Positions 6,365 to 20,508 of a stretch of DNA of 20,508 bases are shown piece by piece (position 1 is the stretch's first letter; each line of letters begins with the position of its first letter). The notes below the pieces were generated by a model. The model was not told the origin of the DNA, ran no database searches, and saw only the letters and a program-made list of their open reading frames with translations. The stretch comes from Archangiaceae bacterium (GTDB taxonomy: Bacteria > Myxococcota > Myxococcia > Myxococcales > Myxococcaceae). A program made the position numbers and the translations under genes. The stretch spans positions 1-20,508 of the forward strand of contig JAYVCD010000024.1 of assembly GCA_043750125.1 (NCBI GenBank), in the 5' to 3' direction.

Positions 6365-6559
6365 CGCGACGTTCTAGTCGATGCGCCGGCCCCGCGCGGG
6401 GTCTACTTGCGACGGTAGAACGGGTCGATGAAGCCGCGCGGCGGGCCGTTGCTGATGCGCTGGCTTTCGTCGGCACTGCAGTGGTTCGAGCCGATGAAGG
6501 CGAGACTTTGGCTCGATTCGATCTGCGGCGGTGTTGGGTTTTGTGGTCTCCTCGCGCGG

Positions 6560-8974
6560 TTGATTTCGCGACCGCTGCTCCACAGCCTCTTCTTTCTCTC
6601 AGGCGCGGCCGCGCTGCTGTACCAGGTGATCTGGGTCCGTCAGTTCGGCAACCTGTTCGGTAACGGGGTGGGGTCGGCCGCGCTGGTCACGGCGATCTTC
6701 ATGGCGGGGCTGGGAATCGGTGGCTCCCTCGCAGGCCGGCTCGCAGATCGCCGACCGGACGACGCGCTGCGGCTGTACGGGTGGGTGGAACTGGCCATCG
6801 GCGGCTGGGGCCTGCTCGTCGCGTTCGCGCTGCCGATGTGCGGCGCGCTTTCGTCCGCGCTGTCTTCCTATGTGCAGGGCCCGGACTACTTCTCACTCAC
6901 GCTCGGGTCCTGGTTGGCCCGTGCGGCGATCGTCACCGTCCTGCTGTTGCCGTCGACGGTCTTGATGGGCGCGACGCTGACCCTGCTGCTGCGACACGTG
7001 CTGTTGGCGAAGGACGGGGGAACCGCCGAAGGTTGGCGCACCGGAGCGCTCTATGGGGCCAACACCGGAGGCGCCGCGCTCGGCGCGGTGCTCGCCGACT
7101 TCGTGCTCGTCCCCCAGATTGGAGCGCTCGGAGCCCAGCTCGTCGCAGTGGGGATCAACGTCGCGGTCGCGGCGATCGTGCTGGCCCGGGTACGTCGCCC
7201 AATCGCCCGCGAGGCGACCGTGGCGGCGCTCCCCTCTCCGCCCGTCGGTCAGGGGTGGGCCGGACTGGCGCTGGCGCTGTCGGGCTTCGCCGGCATGGGA
7301 CTCGAGGTGCTCTGGTTCCGATTCTTCTCGTCGGCGCTGGGAGGCTATCGCAGCGTCTTCGCACTGCTGCTCGCGGTCCTGCTGGTGGGAATGTGGGTGG
7401 GCTCGTGGCTCGCGGGCTGGGCGGCGCATCGGACCGGGCGCCCTGCCCTGCTTCAGGCGCTGGCCCAGACCGGGTTGGTGGCGGCAGCGCTGGGGCTGCT
7501 CGCGGGGCTGGACGTAGAGGCGGCGCGGGCGGCGATCAACGGGGCCACAGGCCGCGGTCAGGATCTCTTGAACCTGGTGCCGATGTTGAAGGCGGTCGCG
7601 CTGCCCGGGATCCTGATGGGCGCCGCGTACCCCCTGCTCAATGCACTGGTGCAGAGCTCGGGGCCCGAGATTGGTTCGTGCGCAGGCCGGCTGTACCTCT
7701 TCAACACGGTCGGCGCAGTTGCAGGCGCACTGGTGACAGGCTTCGTGTTGATCCCGGCGATCGGCGTTCAGCGCACCGTCCCGATCCTCGCGGGAATCGC
7801 GCTGATCGGGTTGGTCCCTTTGCTGCTCGCGGCGCGCACTCTGGCCCGCGGCGAGCTGCCTGCGCTGGGGCGGGCGCTGCCGATCTTCGTCGGCGTGGGG
7901 CTGATCGCAATCGGCGGGTGGTCGATGCGCCCGAAAGACGCGGTGCTGTTCTCTGCTTTCGTGCCCGGGTGGTCTGACGAAATCGAGCTGCTCGCCGCGC
8001 GCGAAGGACCCAACGAAGTCAGCGTCGTCGCGAAGTGGCCGGGCATCGGGCTCGCGTTGTTCACCAACGGCCACAACATGTCGGGCACCAGTCGCGGCAG
8101 CCAACGTTACATGCGGGCCATGGCCCACCTGCCGCTGCTGATGCTCGAGAAGCCGCACCGGGCGCTGGTGATCTGCTTCGGAGTCGGCAACACCGTTCAC
8201 GCCACTTCGCTGCACCCGGTCGAGAAGATCGATGTGGCTGAGTTGTCGCCCGACGTGCTCGCGCTGGCCCCGTACTTCAACCAGACGAACGAGGGCGTCC
8301 TCAAAGATCCGCGCGTCTCTACCTTCGTCAACGACGGGCGGCAGCACCTGCGAATGCAGCCAGAGAGCACGTACGACTTGATCACGCTCGAGCCCCCGCC
8401 GATCGCCTTTGCCGGGGTCGGAGCGCTGTATTCGCGCGAGTTCTACGCGCTCGCCAAAAGCCGTCTGACCCCCGGCGGCCTGCTGACCCAGTGGTTGCCC
8501 GCCTACCAGGTCACGCCGCAAGTCGCGCGCGCGATGGCCGCCAGCTTCGTCGCCGAGTTTCCCCACGCAGTGCTGCTGTCGGGACAGGGCGCCGAGCTGA
8601 TCTTGTTGGGGAGCAAAGGAGGCGACACCCGGCTGGTGCTGTCCACGATTCATCGGCGGCTCGCCGAACGCCCACGGGTGGCGGCCGACCTCGCTGCGTT
8701 CGAATTGGGCACCGACGATGCGCTGGTCGCGATGCTGGTCGCATCACCGGCCGAGCTTGCTTCGTACGTGGAAGGCTCGCCCCAGGTCACGGACGACCGC
8801 CCCCTCAACGAGTACGGCGCCCGCTCGAAGAAGCGGTGGTTCCAGCTCGACCCCCACCTCTTCCCAGCCGATGATCTGGCCGGCTGGTGCATTGACTGTG
8901 CGGACCACGTCGCCGCGCTCGAGCCCATGCGGGTGCTCTACCGTTCCCGGGCCTTCTTGAGTGGCGAGCGCTGA
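6560..8974 (+). CDS. Fused membrane (MFS-like)/spermidine synthase-like SAM-binding protein
   Basis: LFFLSGAAALLYQVIWVR N-terminus; duplicated TM units (GALYGANTGGAALGA / GRLYLFNTVGAVAGA); C-terminal ALVICFGVGNT, VAELS, NDGRQHL, YDLITLEPPP, LYSREFY, QWLP. Start uncertain: TTG 6560 preferred over the ORF-track start at 6428. Confidence 0.85.
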   Translation: MISRPLLHSLFFLSGAAALLYQVIWVRQFGNLFGNGVGSAALVTAIFMAGLGIGGSLAGRLADRRPDDALRLYGWVELAIGGWGLLVAFALPMCGALSSALSSYVQGPDYFSLTLGSWLARAAIVTVLLLPSTVLMGATLTLLLRHVLLAKDGGTAEGWRTGALYGANTGGAALGAVLADFVLVPQIGALGAQLVAVGINVAVAAIVLARVRRPIAREATVAALPSPPVGQGWAGLALALSGFAGMGLEVLWFRFFSSALGGYRSVFALLLAVLLVGMWVGSWLAGWAAHRTGRPALLQALAQTGLVAAALGLLAGLDVEAARAAINGATGRGQDLLNLVPMLKAVALPGILMGAAYPLLNALVQSSGPEIGSCAGRLYLFNTVGAVAGALVTGFVLIPAIGVQRTVPILAGIALIGLVPLLLAARTLARGELPALGRALPIFVGVGLIAIGGWSMRPKDAVLFSAFVPGWSDEIELLAAREGPNEVSVVAKWPGIGLALFTNGHNMSGTSRGSQRYMRAMAHLPLLMLEKPHRALVICFGVGNTVHATSLHPVEKIDVAELSPDVLALAPYFNQTNEGVLKDPRVSTFVNDGRQHLRMQPESTYDLITLEPPPIAFAGVGALYSREFYALAKSRLTPGGLLTQWLPAYQVTPQVARAMAASFVAEFPHAVLLSGQGAELILLGSKGGDTRLVLSTIHRRLAERPRVAADLAAFELGTDDALVAMLVASPAELASYVEGSPQVTDDRPLNEYGARSKKRWFQLDPHLFPADDLAGWCIDCADHVAALEPMRVLYRSRAFLSGER

Positions 8975-12356: not shown

Positions 12357-13232
12357 TCAGAAGGTGAGCGCGAGACCGACGTTCGGCTGAATCGTCGCCC
12401 CACCCAGGGTGCGCTTCTTCCCAAACAGCGTCGGGCTCGCCTCGGTGTTCCCCACGGTGAGTTCGATCAGACCACTCACCCGCCAGCCGCCAAACCGCAG
12501 CCCGAGGGTCGCCCCGTAGAACATCATGTCCACCTTCGCCTGGGTGCTGCTCTCTGGCTGGGTGCCCTCGGTGCAGTCGCACGGCTTGGCGAGGAAGGTC
12601 TGGCGCATCGTGGTGCGGCTGTAGAGGAACTTGGGAACGAAATAGACCCCGATGTGCGAGTTCCAGTCGGCGTTGAAATAGACGGGAACTTCGAGATCCC
12701 ACCGGTTGAACTCATCGAGGCGCACTCCGCCGAAGGCCCCGTCAATCTGGCTGCCGAGCATGTACTTCGAGAGCCCCACTCCGATCGCCACGTCGTAGGA
12801 ACGTCCCCGCGGCTCGTCCCAATCTTCCGAGTCTCCGCTGTGATGCACCCGCAACTTGGCGTCCGCGCGCATCGAATTGATGCTGTAGCGGAAGCCCACA
12901 TCGAGGTTCCGGATGATCCCCACCCGACCGTTGATCTCCCACACCGACGACGGAGGGAACATCGCCAGCGCGATCGCGGCGGTGCCAATCGCCTCTTTGT
13001 CGTCTCCGGTCAAAACGTAGGGGCGGTCGTTGGCATTGGCCATCGCGGTCCTCGCGCCAATGCGAATTCCTTCCGCGGCACTGTTGACCAGCTGACCTGC
13101 GGGAACGTGCACCCCGAACCCTCCCGTGATGCGCACCTGCCCGGGATTCAAGGTCTTGGCGGTCTGCAGCGACGACAAGTTGGTCGCACAACCCGCGAAT
13201 ATCGGCAGCAGACAGACGAGGATTTGTTTCAT
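12357..13232 (-). CDS. Hypothetical lipoprotein with outer-membrane beta-barrel-like C-terminal region
   Basis: ATG 13232 gives MKQILVCLLPIFAG-C (lipobox); many alternating amphipathic strands (LDVGFRY, YDVAIGVG, YGATLGLRFG); ends in VGLALTF with a terminal Phe. Confidence 0.7.
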   Translation of the reverse strand: MKQILVCLLPIFAGCATNLSSLQTAKTLNPGQVRITGGFGVHVPAGQLVNSAAEGIRIGARTAMANANDRPYVLTGDDKEAIGTAAIALAMFPPSSVWEINGRVGIIRNLDVGFRYSINSMRADAKLRVHHSGDSEDWDEPRGRSYDVAIGVGLSKYMLGSQIDGAFGGVRLDEFNRWDLEVPVYFNADWNSHIGVYFVPKFLYSRTTMRQTFLAKPCDCTEGTQPESSTQAKVDMMFYGATLGLRFGGWRVSGLIELTVGNTEASPTLFGKKRTLGGATIQPNVGLALTF

Positions 13233-13345
13233 GAAGAGTAGGTTGCCGCTCGAATCTGGAGCGATCACCGCCCCCTGCTCTTTTCCGAAACGAACTGCTC
13301 TTTAATCAGCGACCCGTTGAAGCCGGGCGGCGGAGTCTTCGAGCC

Positions 13346-14521
13346 TCAGCCGACGTTTGAAGAAGCCACCTGGGAGTGGCGCTGAAGCCAGAGCTCGAAC
13401 GTCGTCCCCACGCCCACCGTCGACTGGAGCGTGATTTCACCGCCCATCGCGTGAATCAGGTCACGGCAGATCGCCAGGCCCAGGCCCGTTCCCACCCCAA
13501 CCGGGCGGGTCGTGAACAGTGGCTCGAACACTTTCTGATGCAGCTCGCGCGGAATTCCGGCGCCGTTGTCTTTCACCCAGACCCGAATGCCCTTGTCGCC
13601 GGTGTCTTCCCAACCCACTTCGATCGCGCCCTTGCGACCGATGCCGTCCATCGCTTGCGCGGCGTTGACGATCAAATTCAGCAGCACCTGGGTGAGCTTC
13701 ACCTGGCCTCCGCGAACCTGAATCGGAGCGCCATTGAGGGTCATCTCGGCGCGGGTACGCACTTCAGCCCGGGCGATGCGCGCGGCGAACTGAGCGACCT
13801 CGGCCAGATCGCTGTGGTCCTCTTTGTCTTCCCCGCGGGCCTGGGTGCGGATCCCCAGCGCGAGCTGGCGAATCAGCTGGGCGCCTTTTTCGATGTCATC
13901 CAGAAGGCTCGGCATGTCGTCGAGCGAGGCGCCGACCTGCGCGTTGGGCGCGGTCAGCAGTTGAGCGCGGGCACAATTCGCAATTTCGATCATCTCGCCG
14001 CGCAGCGTCGAAACATTCTGGGTGAGGTACGAGACGGGGTTCATCAGCTCATGGGCAATTCCCGCCGAGACCTGCCCGATCGCGGCCAGACGTTCCGAGC
14101 CGAGCATCCGCAATTGAACTTCGCGGACCTTGGTCTGCAGCTCGTAGATCTTCAGCGCATCCTCGAGAGCAGCCGACAGCTCTTCTCGCACCCACGGCTT
14201 GACGAAGTAGCGCGAGACCTGCCCGCGGTTGACCGAGGCGACCACCGCCTGCATGTCTGAATAGGCGGTGATGATCATCCGCTGAATGTCGGGGAAGTCC
14301 TGGCGCACTTTTTCGAGCAGCTCGACGCCGCTCATCACCGGCATGCGCTGGTCGGTGATCAACACTCCGATGTCCGACCGGTTGCGCAGCACCTCGAGCG
14401 CGGCGGGGCCGCCCTGGCAGGTGATGACATTGAAGCGCATCTTGAAGCTGGCTTCGAAGACCTTGAGGTTGATCGGCTCGTCGTCGACGTAAACGACCGT
14501 GGGCCGATCAGTGGCTGGCAT
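13346..14521 (-). CDS. Hybrid response regulator-histidine kinase (REC-HisKA-HATPase)
   Basis: REC: VYVDDEP, LITDQRMP, IITAY, FVKPW; H-box GIAHELMNP; N-box LNLIVNAAQA; DNGAGI, FEPLFTT, GTGLGL. Start ATG 14521 has a GGAGAGG RBS and overlaps the upstream gene by 14 nt. Confidence 0.93.
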   Translation of the reverse strand: MPATDRPTVVYVDDEPINLKVFEASFKMRFNVITCQGGPAALEVLRNRSDIGVLITDQRMPVMSGVELLEKVRQDFPDIQRMIITAYSDMQAVVASVNRGQVSRYFVKPWVREELSAALEDALKIYELQTKVREVQLRMLGSERLAAIGQVSAGIAHELMNPVSYLTQNVSTLRGEMIEIANCARAQLLTAPNAQVGASLDDMPSLLDDIEKGAQLIRQLALGIRTQARGEDKEDHSDLAEVAQFAARIARAEVRTRAEMTLNGAPIQVRGGQVKLTQVLLNLIVNAAQAMDGIGRKGAIEVGWEDTGDKGIRVWVKDNGAGIPRELHQKVFEPLFTTRPVGVGTGLGLAICRDLIHAMGGEITLQSTVGVGTTFELWLQRHSQVASSNVG

Positions 14522-17192
14522 GATCCTCTCCCTGCTGCGGTTTGGCGTGCGGCAGTTTGACGGTGAACCGGGCGCCCAGACCGACCGTCGAGTCGACCGA
14601 GATCTGCCCTCCGTGCTTCTCGACGATCTCCCGGACGATGGCGAGGCCCAGCCCGGTGCCACTGCCCACGTCCTTGGTGGTGAAGAACGGGTCCCAGATG
14701 CGCTTGAGCACCCTGGGTTCGATGCCTGCGCCGTTGTCGCTCACTTCGACGGTAGCGTGGCCGTTGACGCGGCTGACTTTGACCCGCACCGCCCCCGACG
14801 GAGAAGCGGCCTGAATGGCGTTGTCGATCAGGTTGACCCAGACCTGGTGCAGGGCACCGGCTTCTCCGACGACGTTGACCGATTCGGTCGAAATGAGCTC
14901 AGAGATGAGCTCGACTCCCGTTCCCACTTTGTGAGACAGCAACTGCAGAGCCAGGCCGACGTTCTCGCTCAGGTTCACATCGCCGCGGGTGCCTTCCCCC
15001 GACCGACCCTGCTTGAGCAGTTGGTCCGAAATGTACTCGACCCGTTTGCTGCTCTGAATGGCGAGATCGATGAGCTCGATCATTTCGGGCGAGGCGCTGG
15101 GCATCAGCTCTTTGAGCGGCTCCAGCGCATTGATGATCCCGTTGAGCGGGTTGCGGATTTCGTGCGCCACTCCGGCGACGACCGCACCCAGGGCCGCCAA
15201 TTTTTCGCGCTGCGCCATCTGCGTCGCGAGCTTGCGCAGCCGAAGCTGCGAGTTGAGCCGGGCGCGCAGTTCCTCGAGATGAAACGGCTTCATCAAGTAG
15301 TCATCAGCACCCTTCTCGAAGCCATTGAGTCGGGTGTCGATCTCCGCGCGGGCAGTGAGCAGCACGAAGGGAATGTTGGAGAGAGCGGAATCGCCCTTGA
15401 TCGCCGCGCAGAGCTCGAGGCCATCCATCTCGGGCATCATCAAGTCCGAAAGGACGACGTCGGGCTGGTGTTGACGGATGAGCCGCAGCGCCTGAGCCCC
15501 ATCGCCGGCCTCGATGACCCGGAAGGTGAGCGCGAGATTCTTGACGATGAACCCCCGCAAGGCCTCGTTGTCTTCAGCGACGAGGAGAGTCGGCAGATCG
15601 CGATTGTCGTCTTCGGCGACGGCAAGCGGCGAGGCGGCGGCGGAATTCTCGCGATGAGAGGCCGCATCGAAGAGGACCAGCTCGGCCGCCGACGGCTTGA
15701 GCGCGACCGGCTTGGCGAGGGGGTCCAGGTGGCCAACGGGCAGCTGGACGGTGAAGCGCACCCACGCGCCGAGCTTCGATTCGGCATCGATGGTTCCGCC
15801 GTGGAGCTCGACCAGCTCACGCACGACCGGAAGCCCCAGACCGGTGGACCCGAAGCGTCGAGAACGGCTGCGGGTCGACTGGGTAAACCGACCGAACAAC
15901 GTGGGCAGTTCCTCGGCGGGCATTCCCTCGCCTGAGTTCTGAATCGAGAAGAACGGCCCTAGGTCGTTTTTGCCCGCTCGGACCTCGATCGTGCCGCCAT
16001 CGGGTGTGAACTTGATCGCGTTGGACATCAGGTTGAGAGCGACCTGCTCGAGGCGCTCGCCGTCAGCAGCGAGGGGAAGGCTCCCTTCCATCACCGTCGT
16101 GAGGGTGATCTTGCGAGCGCGCAAAGCAGGTCCCCAGGAACGAAGGATCTCGGTGAGCAGACGCACCAGGTCGACCGAGCCCATCGTGAGCGTCATCTTG
16201 CCGGCCTCGATCTTCGACAGGTCGAGCACGTCGTTGACCAGCTTCAGCAGCTTGTAGCCGCTGCGGGCCACCGCGTTGATTTCAGACGCCGCGTCGGGGG
16301 GGAGCCCCTTCGAGGCGGCCAGAACTTCGAGTGGGCCGAGCATCAATGTGAGCGGGGTGCGCAGCTCGTGTGAGGCGTTTCCGAAGAATTCTGTCTTCAA
16401 ACGATCAGCTTCCTTCAGCTGTTGCAGTGATTGTTCGAGCTGCCCAGTGCGTTCGGTGACTCTCTGCTCGAGCGTGCTGTTGGCAGACAGGAGCAAGACG
16501 TTCTTTGCTGCGAGCTCGGCCTGAGCAACTTCCAATTCGATGAAGTTTTGCTGAAGGCCTTCGTGAGCGGATTTGAGTTCACGTGCCGTTGCCAGCATCG
16601 TGAACGGCGCGAGGAATGCTCGGCGAAAGCGCATCCACCAACCACCACCGGGCGGTACGGAGACCAGATAGTGCGCCCCATTGTTTTCAGTGATCATCTC
16701 CACGGACGCTGCAGGAAGACCAAGGACGCGGGGCATCTCAATGTAGTTTCCCTTGCACATCAAAAAGAATTCGCGCGGGCGCTCGAAGCCTGGCAGCAGA
16801 TTCATCCCCAACCTCAACCGCAGCGGGCCGAGCTCTTCGAAAGCTGTTTCGACGCATGTAAATGCATCCTTGCCCGGGCCACTGCTGGTCTGTTCAAAAA
16901 TCCATCGATAAAAATCTGTCGCGGTAAAAAGTGTCCGCGCAACCAGAGACATGTAACGAAGGAATGGATTTCGAAAGGTTTCGCGACCCAAGTCCACCAG
17001 TTCTTCATCACTAAGGTGCTGCCCGGTATTGCGAAGAATTGTACAAAACGCTTCCCAGCCAATTCGCTCTTTTCTGTTTTTTAAATGAGCAACCGAAAAT
17101 CCGGTACCTTCGGACAAAAGCTCGGGCGCCAGGGATCGTCGCGCGAAGGCCACGAAAAACATTGGCAGCATTCGACAAGAAACTTCCTTCAT
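14508..17192 (-). CDS. Soluble hybrid sensor kinase with two kinase cores (input domain-HisKA-HATPase-REC-HisKA-HATPase)
   Basis: H-box 1 NASHELRTPL, NLMSNAIKF, GSTGLGL; REC LLVAEDN/LSDLMMPEMDG/LLTA/MKPF; H-box 2 VAHEIRNPL, NLIDNAIQA, DNGAGI, DPFFTTK, GTGLGL. Start ATG 17192 overlaps the KAS III stop (ATGA). Confidence 0.92.
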   Translation of the reverse strand: MKEVSCRMLPMFFVAFARRSLAPELLSEGTGFSVAHLKNRKERIGWEAFCTILRNTGQHLSDEELVDLGRETFRNPFLRYMSLVARTLFTATDFYRWIFEQTSSGPGKDAFTCVETAFEELGPLRLRLGMNLLPGFERPREFFLMCKGNYIEMPRVLGLPAASVEMITENNGAHYLVSVPPGGGWWMRFRRAFLAPFTMLATARELKSAHEGLQQNFIELEVAQAELAAKNVLLLSANSTLEQRVTERTGQLEQSLQQLKEADRLKTEFFGNASHELRTPLTLMLGPLEVLAASKGLPPDAASEINAVARSGYKLLKLVNDVLDLSKIEAGKMTLTMGSVDLVRLLTEILRSWGPALRARKITLTTVMEGSLPLAADGERLEQVALNLMSNAIKFTPDGGTIEVRAGKNDLGPFFSIQNSGEGMPAEELPTLFGRFTQSTRSRSRRFGSTGLGLPVVRELVELHGGTIDAESKLGAWVRFTVQLPVGHLDPLAKPVALKPSAAELVLFDAASHRENSAAASPLAVAEDDNRDLPTLLVAEDNEALRGFIVKNLALTFRVIEAGDGAQALRLIRQHQPDVVLSDLMMPEMDGLELCAAIKGDSALSNIPFVLLTARAEIDTRLNGFEKGADDYLMKPFHLEELRARLNSQLRLRKLATQMAQREKLAALGAVVAGVAHEIRNPLNGIINALEPLKELMPSASPEMIELIDLAIQSSKRVEYISDQLLKQGRSGEGTRGDVNLSENVGLALQLLSHKVGTGVELISELISTESVNVVGEAGALHQVWVNLIDNAIQAASPSGAVRVKVSRVNGHATVEVSDNGAGIEPRVLKRIWDPFFTTKDVGSGTGLGLAIVREIVEKHGGQISVDSTVGLGARFTVKLPHAKPQQGEDHASH

Positions 17193-18268
17193 CGACCCCA
17201 CCGCATGGTTTGACCCGTCCATGTAATGCCAGTTCCTCCGGTGTACATGGCGACCAAGTCTCCATCCTTGAGAGTACCTTCACGCTCTCCCATTCCAAGC
17301 ATAAAAGGGATGTTGCAGGCAGCAAGACTTCCGGTCCAAGCGAACGAGTCGAATGACTTAGCCCTTTTCAGACCCATGTATTCCTGCGTCACCTTGCGGA
17401 ACCAATAGGTGGATTGATGGGTGGCATAGAAATCGACATCCATGGGCTGATGGCCGCTTCGCAAGAGGGCTTCGTCGATCACTTCCTTGGCCAGGTCCGC
17501 AATCAGTAGCAACATGTTTCGGGCGCACTGGCGGTCCGGCGTGTAGAGGACCGTTCGATCGGCTTCCCACCATCGGGCGCCTGGTTTGCCACCCACCAAC
17601 GCCAGGTGAAAACTACCGTCCGTCCGGTGGGACCATGACAGCGCGCCCTTTCCCTCGGAAACGGGTCCAACGAGCACCGCCGTGGCTGCATCTCCAAACC
17701 AAGCGGAATGATGATCCTCTGGAAGGCTAATTGCTGAGCAAGTCGATGACTGGATGAGCAAAGCGTTACGCGCTTGACCAGACTTGATCATCTGCTCCGC
17801 CAGCGCGAATTGCACAAGAAAAGAGTTGCACGCTGAATGCGTGTCCAAAGACAAACAATTTCGATTGAGTCCCAACTGTCGATGCACCAACGGCGCGTTC
17901 GGAGTTAACAGGTGATCGGGCAACTGACTGAACACCATCAAAAGGTCGATGTCGGACTTCGCAACCCCAGACCGCTTGATTGCGTCGTCTCCTGCCGCAA
18001 CTTCCATGTCCGACGGGTTAACGCCCTTAGGCATGACTCTTCGTTCGATAGCGCCCTTGAACGCGTCGCCCTTGTAGCTGGCCATCGCCTCCAGCGTTCG
18101 ACGGGCTCCCTCGGTCTGAGCATCATCTTTTGAATGCTCTGGTCGCACGAGATTGGTGCGTTCTCCCCAGGAACGGACAACCGACTCGGGCCACCAATCG
18201 TTTTTCCTGATTTCCGAAGGAAGATGAATGCCAACTCCAAGAATGCCGACGGAAGTATTTGTGGTCAT
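17189..18268 (-). CDS. 3-oxoacyl-ACP synthase III (FabH/KAS III)-like condensing enzyme, atypical
   Basis: GILGVGIHLP, ERR, catalytic Cys in SACNSF, FGDAATAV, His in ATHQ, C-terminal GDLVAMYTGGTGITW; GSL occupies the position of the FabH GN(T/S) motif. Confidence 0.9.
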   Translation of the reverse strand: MTTNTSVGILGVGIHLPSEIRKNDWWPESVVRSWGERTNLVRPEHSKDDAQTEGARRTLEAMASYKGDAFKGAIERRVMPKGVNPSDMEVAAGDDAIKRSGVAKSDIDLLMVFSQLPDHLLTPNAPLVHRQLGLNRNCLSLDTHSACNSFLVQFALAEQMIKSGQARNALLIQSSTCSAISLPEDHHSAWFGDAATAVLVGPVSEGKGALSWSHRTDGSFHLALVGGKPGARWWEADRTVLYTPDRQCARNMLLLIADLAKEVIDEALLRSGHQPMDVDFYATHQSTYWFRKVTQEYMGLKRAKSFDSFAWTGSLAACNIPFMLGMGEREGTLKDGDLVAMYTGGTGITWTGQTMRWGR

Positions 18269-18272
18269 GAGT

Positions 18273-20045
18273 TCACGAAGCGAAGTTCTTCATCTGGGTG
18301 ACGCGCCCATGAATTGGGAACGCAGACTTGGGATCGAGCGCGATATCGAGCACCAGCGGCACGTCTGAGTTGAGCCAGTCAGCAGGGATTGCCTCAAGAT
18401 CGGCGACGGTACGAATCGAAAGTCCTCGCGCGCCCATAGCGCGCGCCATCGCGGCAAAATCATTCCGAGGCCCATGCATCACTCCACTGCGGCCGAACAC
18501 GCGCGACTGACCGGATTCAACCATTCTCATTCGGGCATCATTGAACACTGCGAAGACCACGCCGATGTTGCTCTGAACACATGTCGCGAGCTCGTTTCCT
18601 CCCATCTGAAATCCGTAATCGCCGCAGATCGAGACCACCGGACGTTCGGGCCGGACCACTTTGGCTCCGATGGCCGCTCCAATTCCCGAGCCCATCGAAC
18701 CCATGCCTGTCGATACGAGAAAGCCATCAGGGCGATCGATCTTCAGGTAGTGGAGCGCGAAGATTGTGTGCTCACCAATGTCACTGGTGAAAATCGTGTC
18801 TTCGGGACAAATGTCCTGCAGGCCGCGAATGACCCTGCCCGACTTGAGCGGCAATGAGTCGTCAATCATCTCCTGGGGATTCAGATATTTTACGCCCCCG
18901 TTGCTCGGCCCGGTCGGTTTGCGGCGAGTGACTTTGGCTACCAACGAACGCAGCACCAGATGCGACGGCCCGATCAGCCCATAATCGACTTGGTAGTTCT
19001 TCCCGATTTGCGCGCCATCGATGTCGATTTGAATGAACGTCTTCGAGGGCTGCAGCACGGGGCTCCAGCTGTTGGTGCCAGTCTCACCCAGTCCGCAACC
19101 GATGGCGATCAAGGTATCGATGCCATTGTCGAGGTAATGAGACGCTGAAGGGTGGCCTCCAAAACCGAATACACCCAGTGAGAGCGGGTCGCTCTCGGGG
19201 AAGAGGCCTTTGGCCCGAGGCGTGGTGCAGACAGGGATGTTGAGGGTCGCGGCAAGCGCACCGACCAGACGCACCGCTTCGGGGTGACGTGCACCCGAGC
19301 CGACGAGAATCAGAGCACGCTCACTTGTCTGCAATGCCGTGGCTGCCTCAGAGATTGTCTCCTCATCGAGTGCGAACTGGGTTGAGACCTGTGTCGCCGA
19401 CCGCATCGGCCGAACCTTCTCGTTGGCGATGTCGAGCGGCAGCGAGAGAAATACCGGACCTCGCCGCCCCGACAATGCTGTGGCCACCGCCTTGCGAATG
19501 ATGCTGGCAGCCGCACGGGGATTCGAAATCTCTGCGGAAAACTTGGTCACGCTGCGCACCATTCCGAGGATGTCGAGGTGTGAGCTGCTGCCTTCCTGCA
19601 ATGCCCCACGACCAAAATTGCGGCGAGGCACTTCGCCTCCGATTGCGATCATCGGAACGCCATCGGCAAACGCAGAAGCCAGCCCTGTCAGCGCATTGGT
19701 GATGCCCGGACCCGAAGTCATCAAAATGCATGGCAGGGTCCCGCCTACCTTCGAGTGCCCCATCGCCATGAAAGCGGCTCCCGTCTCGTGTCGGGTGTTG
19801 ATGATGCGCATCGAAGGATGATCAAGCAGAGCGTCGTAGATGGGGCAGATCGCGCCCCCGGGGATTCCATAGAACGTATCCACCCCGAGCTCCTCGAGGG
19901 TCTGCACGATGACGTCAGAAACTCGCGCCGTCGGGCGCTCGACCGGCGCGACCAATGCGACGGGTTTGACCAGCGCGATTTGTTTGATTTGTGCGATTGC
20001 CATAGGGGGGCTGATCGGTACCACTTTCTTTATCGGGAGTTCCAT
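18273..20045 (-). CDS. Thiamine-diphosphate-dependent enzyme (acetolactate synthase/acyloin synthase-like)
   Basis: GVDTFYGIPGG, RHETGAAFMA (catalytic Glu), TSGPGITN, GPVFLSLPLD, GMGSMGSG, ThDP motif GDYGFQM...FND. Start is ATG 20045 or ATG 20003; stop lies 4 nt before the KAS III start. Confidence 0.92.
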   Translation of the reverse strand: MELPIKKVVPISPPMAIAQIKQIALVKPVALVAPVERPTARVSDVIVQTLEELGVDTFYGIPGGAICPIYDALLDHPSMRIINTRHETGAAFMAMGHSKVGGTLPCILMTSGPGITNALTGLASAFADGVPMIAIGGEVPRRNFGRGALQEGSSSHLDILGMVRSVTKFSAEISNPRAAASIIRKAVATALSGRRGPVFLSLPLDIANEKVRPMRSATQVSTQFALDEETISEAATALQTSERALILVGSGARHPEAVRLVGALAATLNIPVCTTPRAKGLFPESDPLSLGVFGFGGHPSASHYLDNGIDTLIAIGCGLGETGTNSWSPVLQPSKTFIQIDIDGAQIGKNYQVDYGLIGPSHLVLRSLVAKVTRRKPTGPSNGGVKYLNPQEMIDDSLPLKSGRVIRGLQDICPEDTIFTSDIGEHTIFALHYLKIDRPDGFLVSTGMGSMGSGIGAAIGAKVVRPERPVVSICGDYGFQMGGNELATCVQSNIGVVFAVFNDARMRMVESGQSRVFGRSGVMHGPRNDFAAMARAMGARGLSIRTVADLEAIPADWLNSDVPLVLDIALDPKSAFPIHGRVTQMKNFAS

Positions 20046-20060
20046 AGGGTGGGTCCGATT

Positions 20061-20076
20061 TGCACAGTGCGTACCG
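20061..20076 (-). promoter_or_regulatory. Candidate sigma-54 (-24/-12) promoter of the ThDP/KAS III/kinase operon
   Basis: Minus strand CGGTACGCACTGTGCA has exact GG-N10-GC spacing and resembles TGGCACG-N4-TTGCW. Confidence 0.45.
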
Positions 20077-20149
20077 TTTGACCTGTGGGACTTGGACACA
20101 GGGATGACGCGACCTTGCTCGGGGTCAACTCGCCGAAGGGAAGGTCTGC

Positions 20150-20279
20150 GCTGACCCATTGGGGTCCCCTGACCCGTCAGCGCTGACCGCGATCACGTCA
20201 GGCTACCGCTCAGACGCTGGCAGGCCTGCAGTCCAAGCGGCTGCAAACACGTTGGCGCGCGCGCGATGAGTGGGTCAGC
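20150..20279. repeat. Cluster of CTGAC/GTCAG half-sites (possible activator or operator sites)
   Basis: CTGAC-N2-GTCAG (20169-20180), perfect palindrome GTCAGCGCTGAC (20176-20187), CTGAC-N9-GTCAG (20183-20201), GCTGACCCA (20150-20158)/TGGGTCAGC (20271-20279). Confidence 0.45.
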
Positions 20280-20342
20280 TGCGGCGGTGCCTACATTCCC
20301 ATGCACCCCCGACTGTCGACGCCCAACTGAAGCGCCATGACG

Positions 20343-20371
20343 TCGGGCGATGTGGGTTGAGACCCGCCCGA
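20343..20371 (-). terminator. Hairpin just downstream of the partial CDS (possible terminator; no U-tract)
   Basis: TCGGGCG (20343-20349)/CGCCCGA (20365-20371) with an inner GGGT-TGAG-ACCC stem; begins 5 nt after the TGA at 20377. Confidence 0.3.
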
Positions 20372-20376
20372 AACCT

Positions 20377-20508
20377 TCAGGCCCGCAGTGCGGCCGATTT
20401 CTTCCCGCCGGCCGCCCGGGCCTTCCTTTTCACCACGACGGGAGCCACCTCGACCTCGACTTCGACCAGGTCCGCTCCGCCAGGCTCTTTCACCCCGCCC
20501 TTCACCGC
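20377..20508 (-). CDS. 3' end of an unidentified gene running in from beyond the window (basic tail)
   Basis: Open frame from the window edge: AVKGGVKEPGGADLVEVEVEVAPVVVKRKARAAGGKKSAALRA-stop, with GC-rich third positions. Confidence 0.5.
   Translation of the reverse strand, partial: AVKGGVKEPGGADLVEVEVEVAPVVVKRKARAAGGKKSAALRA

Follow-up and report, generated by a model that had tools for sequence, protein, structure and literature searches.

The window analysed here, 20,508 nt in length, is one whole contig (JAYVCD010000024.1) of the genome bin of an uncultured myxobacterium; the bin comprises 6.17 Mb in 460 contigs, with a G+C content of 64.9%. Its minus strand carries an operon that encodes, in order, a thiamine diphosphate (ThDP)-dependent carboligase, a KAS III-like condensing enzyme, a soluble hybrid histidine kinase and a receiver-kinase, and the same operon was found across Myxococcales genomes. 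The KAS III-like enzyme and the N-terminal sensor domain of the hybrid kinase share one history, and that history conflicts with those of the ThDP enzyme and the kinase core, both of which follow the genus. The parts of the operon are the following, all on the minus strand.

18273..20048: ThDP-dependent carboligase (acetolactate-synthase superfamily); the open reading frame (ORF) is open to 20159, and translation probably starts at M38 (20048)
17189..18268: KAS III-like condensing enzyme, 359 aa; synthase half of the putatively exchanged cassette
14508–17222: hybrid histidine kinase ORF, 904 aa; the likely true start is the ATG at 17192 (894-aa form)
16557..17192: N-terminal sensor domain of the kinase, aa 1–212 (numbering from the ATG at 17192)
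16371..16556: coiled-coil linker (S-helix) up to the H-box; 3′ end of the block of low G+C content at third codon positions (GC3)
16368..16370: phospho-acceptor His codon, CAC, of the first H-box, SHELRTPL
14508..16370: conserved kinase core, consisting of HisKA, HATPase_c, receiver, second HisKA and second HATPase_c domains (Pfam)
13346..14521: receiver-histidine kinase, 391 aa, with its ATG at 14521 (Pfam Response_reg and HATPase_c)
16371..18268: putatively exchanged specificity cassette, consisting of the KAS III gene, sensor domain and linker, as delimited by trees, partial Mantel tests and recurrent boundaries

The genes are closely packed. Only 4 nt separate the ThDP stop codon, in a gene whose start at 20048 was placed by alignment with congeners, from the KAS start; an ATGA is shared by the KAS stop and the kinase start, and the first 14 nt of the receiver-kinase gene lie within the 3′ end of the hybrid kinase gene. 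The kinase most likely begins at the ATG at 17192, since its homologues begin at a conserved M-x-E-V-S-C and since this is the start that overlaps the KAS stop.

Relatives were collected by a DNA search of 41 related genomes and by searching 363 genomes of the order with a sensor profile. The profile matched 59 of the 363 at E ≤ 1e-5 and 22, counting the present genome (designated W) and the unpublished G271, at E ≤ 1e-50. A sensor-kinase of this type was found in 28 genomes, and in 25 of these a KAS III gene lies directly upstream of it; in G020 the operon is split at contig ends. Two genera are of particular importance below: g1, which contains W, G002, G003 and G004, and g13, which contains G016, G331, G332 and G333.

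Composition and limits of the block

A preliminary description of this DNA had reported, from G+C counts in 60-nt lines, a step in composition near the SHELRTPL codons, with the His codon at 16368–16370. All seven counts were exact on recounting, the His codon lies where it was placed, and a GC3 profile contains the expected step near 16370. The maximum-likelihood GC3 change point of the kinase gene falls after codon 284 (window 16371), so that it adjoins the phospho-acceptor codon, and it separates a 5′ part with a GC3 of 0.577 from a 3′ part with a GC3 of 0.818. The log-likelihood ratio (LLR) of 28.1 was reached by 0 of 2000 permutations, and the 2-log-likelihood interval extends from 16314 to 16401. 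When five genes (2532 codons) were analysed together at their in-frame third positions, there was one major cut, between 16371 and 16368 (LLR 54.7), with a GC3 of 0.635 upstream and 0.819 downstream. A weak second cut was found at 18735, inside the ThDP gene (0.698 versus 0.601; LLR 5.8, reached by 13 of 500 permutations).

For whole genes, GC3 is 0.68 for the ThDP enzyme, 0.61 for the KAS III-like enzyme and 0.74 for the hybrid kinase, within which the sensor domain ranges from 0.44 to 0.69 and the core stands at 0.82. Six of the eight other genes in the window (cysD to the receiver-kinase) have values of 0.79–0.86; the lower ones are a 5′-open cysG-like ORF (0.74) and orf500 (0.76). The 1-kb stretch 16501–17500, with a G+C content of 0.533, ranks among the lowest 0.03% of all 11,653 1-kb windows in the genome, and windows with a G+C content of 0.56 or less number only 14 in the 6.17-Mb genome. 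The linker codons at 16371–16478 have a GC3 of 0.58 in W versus 0.78–0.83 in its congeners, and their protein sequence is conserved. Because these 36 protein-conserved codons before the His are low in GC3, the imported piece would, by composition, run to the H-box.

A lower GC3 in the block than in the kinase core was observed in seven genomes, as follows (GC3 minus that of the core).

W: KAS −0.20; sensor −0.25
MFD06435: KAS −0.20; sensor −0.22
G163: KAS −0.25
G004: KAS −0.13; sensor −0.05
G002: KAS −0.12; sensor −0.08
G003: KAS −0.08; sensor −0.10
G331: KAS −0.09; sensor −0.06

Such dips are absent in most other genomes. Five of the seven (W, G002, G003, G004 and G331) belong to g1 and g13, the genera in which the KAS and sensor trees conflict with those of the flanks, and the other two are single genomes. 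The dips fit recent import from lower-GC donors.

The limits of the block are also apparent in the protein sequences. Identities (%) within g1, and in the two pairs of genomes with the strongest contrasts, are as follows.

W and G004: ThDP 78; KAS 33; sensor 31; core 82
W and G003: ThDP 83; KAS 51; sensor 48; core 79
W and G002: ThDP 75; KAS 68; sensor 52; core 82
G002 and G004: ThDP 89; KAS 34; sensor 27; core 88
G331 and G016: ThDP 88; KAS 32; sensor 28; core 86

The KAS protein of W is thus 33–68% identical to those of its congeners, versus 79–82% for the kinase core; for the receiver-kinase the range is 76–79%. On the 5′ side, identity of the ThDP enzyme to congeners is 70–80% through the C-terminus, and that of the KAS protein is low from the first residues. 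On the 3′ side, the kinase sequences become more alike from approximately residue 240 (894-aa numbering; window ~16478), the start of both the conserved S-helix and the sequence STLEQRV. In the pairs G004/G002 and G016/G331, identity drops sharply where KAS starts and is regained 20–40 residues ahead of the H-box. The same limits, the ThDP/KAS junction and a point about 25–40 codons before the H-box, therefore recur in independent pairs. For the KAS III gene and the kinase input domain, these results bear out the earlier proposal of a divergent block that extends to the first H-box, beyond which the kinase core is conserved.

Most homologues contain, between the sensor and the dimerization and histidine phosphotransfer (DHp) domain, an insert of approximately 125 aa (at about 7955–8440 in locus L009 and 6710–7200 in L016), which is absent in W, G002, G003 and G028; its site corresponds to window position 16478. 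It can be assigned to the variable block, because it is as divergent as the sensor in G016 versus G331. No Pfam match at E ≤ 0.01 was found for it when the N-terminal 373 aa of the G004 protein were scanned; it may conceivably be a GAF domain.

Since the window derives from a metagenomic bin, Logan contigs from four runs of one study (X1–X4) were aligned to positions 13000–20508. In each of X1 and X2, two runs that may represent the source samples, a single 4710-base contig covers 16208–20508 with zero differences. Both the GC3 step and the boundary in protein identity therefore lie within one contig, and the step does not result from an assembly join. Further 3′, the Logan contigs break at 16208–16226, 16006–16035 and 15126–15133. 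In the bin 16012–16262 depth rises to approximately 184–257, versus approximately 8 in neighbouring bins, with several alternative joints; the exact words of this stretch, which encodes parts of the DHp and catalytic (CA) domains, recur in numerous other kinase genes of the sample. On the two sides, depth is alike in the four runs (7.6 versus 8.1–9.2 in X1; approximately 4 on each side in X3 and X4). The same KAS protein, and a 765-aa gene call for the kinase that spans the junction, were each found on two contigs, the longest of 100,368 bases. The same join was also seen in every relative.

Conflicting phylogenies of the block and its flanks

Separate phylogenies had been proposed as a check on the preliminary description. 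Trees for the KAS protein (26 rows) and the sensor (28 rows) were obtained with a careful search, and those for the kinase core and ThDP enzyme with a quick search and Shimodaira–Hasegawa-like approximate likelihood ratio support only; the trees comprised 25–28 loci. G271 was left out; G184 was dropped, as it was a weak match in which neither KAS nor sensor was found by tblastn; and L021 is a duplicate of G277. The pieces G002b and G003b, which are split off by contig ends, were likewise omitted rather than joined to their partners. The KAS tree is without G275 and G028, which have no KAS, and the ThDP tree is without G275, G277 and RA128.

The KAS tree consists of two deep clades (support 100/99). 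A clade of seven genomes (G004, G009, G268, G272, G016, G332 and G333) has support of 100/100 in both the KAS and the sensor tree. W and G002 are sisters in the KAS tree (96/95) and in the sensor tree (100/94), and G331, a member of the other genus, joins them in both (83/90 and 86/95, respectively), so that the topology (G331,(W,G002)) is common to the two. The kinase-core and ThDP trees, in contrast, both recover g1, with support of 100 in each, and g13, with support of 100 and 95, and in both of them G002 and G004 are sisters, as are G016 and G331. The check therefore favours the earlier proposal as regards the KAS III-like enzyme and the input domain, the trees of which match one another and conflict with those of the flanks.

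The conflict was confirmed by approximately unbiased (AU) tests. The KAS data reject the monophyly of g1 (log-likelihood difference 253, p 1.9e-10) and of g13 (234, p 2e-27), and the sensor data do likewise (g1, 137, p 5.7e-5; g13, 87, p 3e-13). Conversely, the kinase-core data reject the seven-genome class, as defined from the KAS tree, as a clade (log-likelihood difference 1091). The class label changes once on the KAS and sensor trees, and six times on those of the core and the ThDP enzyme.

Partial Mantel tests over 24 loci gave a concordant result. The correlation of KAS with sensor distances, given the core, was 0.84, and that of ThDP with core distances, given KAS, was 0.71, neither of which was reached in any of 5000 permutations; KAS and core, given the sensor, gave −0.08. 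The genomes are, of course, related to one another, so that the permutation counts overstate independence, and the tree conflicts are the stronger evidence.

The preliminary description had held that the synthases and the sensor input were exchanged or diverged together. For the KAS III-like enzyme and the input domain this agrees with the trees and AU tests. It is not supported for the ThDP enzyme, the tree of which follows the genus and which retains 70–80% identity to congeners as far as its C-terminus. The C-terminal domain of the ThDP enzyme is closest to that of G003 (79%), and the gene has a GC3 of 0.68 in both W and G003, versus 0.87 in G002 and 0.89 in G004.

Predicted properties of the enzymes and the sensor

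The KAS III-like enzyme matches the Pfam families ACP_syn_III (E 1e-14) and ACP_syn_III_C (E 1e-13) and contains the triad Cys147, His284 and Asn319; His284 is the same in all 24 sequences compared, and conservation of Cys147 and Asn319 is 90% or more. The enzyme scores far below the cutoffs of the housekeeping FabH models (136.5 versus 249 for NCBIfam PRK09352, and 125.1 versus 292.1 for TIGR00747). Among 120 relatives listed, identity ranges from 76% down to 45%, and the named ones are Myxococcota, including Minicystis rosea at 52%. Judged from its sequence, the protein is a member of a divergent KAS III-like subfamily that occurs mostly in Myxococcota records.

Its solved relatives include FabH (E 2e-31) and, much more distantly, PqsC (E 1e-15) and PqsD (E 3e-13). 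PqsD/PqsBC (quinolones), PpyS (photopyrones) and DarB (dialkylresorcinols) are likewise KAS III-fold makers of bacterial signalling molecules, although the score against the StlD/DarB model, 30.6, is below the cutoff of 450. The receptors of the Pqs, PpyS and DarB signals are LysR- or LuxR-type regulators, not kinases.

The ThDP enzyme matches all three Pfam TPP_enzyme domains (N, M and C) and so belongs to the superfamily, with a score of 381.6 that is below the cutoff for the acetolactate synthase large subunit (538.35; TIGR00118, acolac_lg). Its best solved relatives are BbmA (8x3x, E 4e-96) and CsmA (8x3z); no paper on the reaction of either was found in a literature search. A ThDP enzyme and a KAS III-like enzyme are also paired in carbazole biosynthesis (NzsH/CqsB3 with NzsJ/CqsB1), for which the precedent is given in PMC7466098. 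The likeness is one of enzyme type, and, unlike in that pathway, there is no carbazole synthase/cyclase, dedicated acyl carrier protein or aminotransferase near the enzymes of the present operon.

The kinase is a HisKA-type hybrid histidine kinase with two HisKA domains, two HATPase_c domains and one Response_reg domain in Pfam, that is, two HisKA/HATPase cores with a receiver between them; the codon of the second H-box His is at 15162–15164. No transmembrane segment was found, the maximum Kyte–Doolittle value over 19 residues being 1.29. That a further receiver-kinase follows makes for an unusually long relay, and there is no DNA-binding output gene nearby (window 14508–16370).

In the public gene call the kinase has 765 aa and starts at an internal Met approximately 130 codons downstream of the conserved start (window 16803–17192). 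The gene caller was probably misled by the atypical, low-GC 5′ part; annotations of this kinase family may therefore often miss the sensor domain.

No significant Pfam match was found for the sensor family. Arabinose_bd (PF12625) matches 3 of 26 sensors weakly (best E 0.0038) and does not match the domain of W itself. An AlphaFold2 model of the sensor (pLDDT 90, pTM 0.82) was compared with solved structures. Three H-NOX structures gave Z scores of 13.7, 13.3 and 12.7 (best, 166 residues with a root-mean-square deviation of 3.0), and Foldseek also matched H-NOX (E 3e-5, TM 0.5–0.59). The N-terminal domain of Mycobacterium tuberculosis VirS (residues 4–208), an AraC-family regulator, gave a Z score of 11.7 over 170 residues at 14% identity; according to the title of its entry, this structure was solved with small-molecule ligands. 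Lower scores were obtained for TRAPP Bet3 (8.8), phenol-sensing PoxR/DmpR (6.9 and 6.7) and CdpR (6.1). The modelled fold is thus of a ligand-binding type, similar to H-NOX and to the VirS N-terminal domain.

H-NOX proteins commonly control histidine kinases; here, in contrast, the domain is fused to the kinase itself. Furthermore, no His is conserved among 26 aligned sensors, in which S5 and W46 are the only invariant columns and in which no column that is at least 90% conserved is His. H-NOX-type haem ligation by the sensor is therefore unlikely.

The sensor domain family is large: among 1.84 billion cluster representatives (50% identity), the profile matched 1968 at E ≤ 0.001 and 488 at E ≤ 1e-30, and most of the matches sit at the N-terminus of proteins of 850–1030 aa. 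Weaker matches (E 1e-23 to 1e-25) were observed in ORFs of approximately 300 aa rather than in kinases (for example in G295, G310, G311 and G312); such ORFs may encode regulators of the AraC type that share this ligand domain.

A proposed ligand/receptor module and its alternatives

The explanation that we favour, and consider slightly more probable than its opposite, is that the operon is a self-contained ligand/receptor module in which the KAS III gene, sensor domain and linker are swapped as a unit, and that the resident cassette of W came from a lower-GC donor. The ThDP carboligase and KAS III-like enzyme would together make a small, lipophilic compound, probably derived from an acyloin: the vertically inherited ThDP enzyme would supply a common scaffold, and the interchangeable KAS III, as the specificity-determining synthase, would add a class-specific acyl part. 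The product would be sensed in the cytoplasm by the H-NOX/VirS-N-like pocket domain of the soluble hybrid kinase, and so set the activity of the relay that the sensor-kinase feeds through the receiver-kinase. The cassette (~16371–18268) would be replaced by recombination between two conserved anchors, one where the ThDP gene ends and one at the S-helix/H-box region of the kinase, with the outcome that discrete synthase/sensor classes are common across genera and the ThDP enzyme and kinase core are inherited vertically. The donor of the cassette now resident in W would be an unsampled, lower-GC organism, and the cassette would not yet have ameliorated, which would leave the GC3 step at the His codon.

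The order in which the enzymes act, the nature of the product and its passage between cells are conjectured, the scheme itself following the analogy of the carbazole pathway. On the same footing, the KAS product would be the ligand of the adjacent sensor, the classes would not cross-react, and a diffusible signal would define pherotypes within species. A bolder proposition, about which we are doubtful, is that the operon would be the first dedicated autoinducer system based on a small molecule in Myxococcota, with KAS/sensor pherotype cassettes that are traded across genera and that would give co-occurring myxobacteria discrete chemical dialects. No such synthase/receptor system in Myxococcota was found in a literature search, the reach of which excluded most subscription journals.

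In the agrBDC locus, the gene that makes the signal varies as a block with the input half of its receptor kinase, and the catalytic half of the kinase and the flanks are conserved. The present operon resembles agrBDC of Staphylococcus and comQXP(A) of Bacillus in that the synthase and the N-terminal kinase input vary en bloc beside a conserved core and flanks, in that one breakpoint is inside the kinase gene, and in that the phylogeny of the block conflicts with that of the host. It is unlike them in its parts. Their signals are ribosomal peptides, their input domains are membrane-embedded and their polymorphism is documented within species, whereas here a KAS III-like synthase is paired with a soluble, H-NOX/VirS-N-like sensor, and a second enzyme, the ThDP carboligase, lies outside the block. 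The classes described here are, moreover, classes between species and genera, and the polymorphism is one within genera g1 and g13, each species being represented by one genome. The concept of a pherotype is used as it is set out for ComQXPA in PMC4408185.

Two further systems offer a comparison at the level of chemistry. CqsA and LqsA are pyridoxal phosphate-dependent acyl-CoA transferases, and their sensors, CqsS and LqsS, are membrane proteins. If the product of the present operon were an acyloin, it would have the alpha-hydroxyketone class of signal and a hybrid-kinase receptor in common with CqsA/CqsS and LqsA/LqsS; no sequence resemblance to these systems was detected in the domain and family-model scans made.

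Among the alternatives, the most serious is that the same cognate enzyme/sensor pair is cell-autonomous, the kinase sensing its own cluster's product or an intermediate and autoregulating a small biosynthetic cluster, with no intercellular signal and no pherotypes. The kinase is, after all, soluble and without a membrane segment, there is no exporter in the operon, and the nearest non-haem structural relatives of the sensor are intracellular ligand domains of transcription regulators (VirS, PoxR/DmpR and CdpR). This alternative is nevertheless rather unlikely. Classes that cross genera and the repeated replacement of whole cassettes would be expected from diversifying social selection, as in agr and comQXPA, and simple product feedback gives less reason for such replacement; lipophilic products of the acyloin type would, in addition, be expected to cross membranes unaided.

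It is improbable that the KAS III-like protein and the sensor co-vary through protein contact, with the former acting as a regulatory partner of the kinase and not as the maker of its ligand. Tight co-inheritance and ATGA translational coupling are also typical of interacting pairs, but retention of the catalytic Cys147-His284-Asn319 triad argues for an active enzyme, and the sensor is predicted to have a pocket-type, ligand-binding fold. A prediction of the KAS III–sensor complex gave a score of 0.00; it was run without controls and was counted neither for nor against binding.

A neutral recombination hot spot, from which the block moves because it is contiguous and in which the KAS protein and sensor are not functionally matched, is similarly of low probability. 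An imported segment carries its neighbours along, and the DHp-region words that are shared by many kinase genes (depth approximately 184–257 versus 8) would provide a ready anchor for recombination. In three comparisons, however, the boundaries lie at the same functional borders, the KAS gene start and the sensor/DHp junction, and the single change of class label on the KAS and sensor trees means that no recombinant that separates KAS from sensor was seen among the 28 genomes.

That the pattern is an artefact, either of a chimeric metagenomic contig with its join in the conserved kinase core, where the Logan contigs of this 460-contig bin break among high-depth common words, or of fast evolution of the block in place, is barely credible, given that the step and the identity boundary lie inside one error-free contig of even depth on both sides, that the KAS protein and the junction-spanning kinase call each recur on two contigs and that 25 of 28 genomes have the same architecture; the AU tests, for their part, reject divergence in place.

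Several observations weigh against the proposed exchange of a ligand/receptor cassette. Adjacent DNA moves together in any recombination, so co-inheritance alone is no proof of functional pairing. In G028 (L188 5434–7954) the ThDP gene is followed directly by the kinase, without an adjacent KAS, and in G275 (L176 1–2507) neither enzyme is found within 1.8 kb upstream of the sensor-kinase. Because the ThDP gene follows the genus, its low GC3 in W and in G003 is not explained by import of the cassette. The identity of third positions at same-amino-acid codons is approximately 0.55 across the conserved core; synonymous sites are thus saturated, and the 3′ breakpoint is placed by composition only. 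As the kinase is without a membrane segment and the operon without a transporter, a role between cells requires a membrane-permeant product. The comparison genomes are one representative per species, and most of them are metagenome bins.

Finally, the donor of the cassette was not found: the closest KAS among 5.8 billion proteins is 76% identical. A scan of metagenome contigs with the KAS protein gave no matches, and one with the KAS alignment gave 25 loci, none of them above 51% identity over most of the protein, and thus no close relative of the cassette with its flanks. Genome contigs scanned with the KAS alignment yielded mostly Bacteroidota FabH genes (3 of 80 loci were useful), and a word-indexed search with the sensor region returned only seven proteins.

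En-bloc exchange of a signal synthase and the input half of its receptor kinase is a hallmark of the peptide pherotype systems of Firmicutes. The appearance of the same genetic logic with unrelated parts, in a different phylum and across genera, suggests a general solution for private communication channels, here in a phylum of social, predatory bacteria. The recombination boundaries mark where the kinase could be cut for re-targeting, and the pairs G002/G004 and G331/G016, in which two deep classes are carried on near-identical backbones, are natural swap experiments.

Downstream of the operon, a lipoprotein-like ORF is present at 12357–13268 on the minus strand. In W and G003 this ORF and the receiver-kinase gene adjoin (window 12357–13346); in G004 (L009 1081–4674) genes for DUF3570 and ApbE proteins are situated between the receiver-kinase gene and the homologue of the lipoprotein-like ORF. 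Elsewhere in the window, an ORF of 848 aa at 6428–8974 has a spermidine-synthase domain only at residues 560–687. The AT skew over 6501–7500 is strongly negative (to −0.43), which suggests that the N-terminal part of this ORF is long and hydrophobic.

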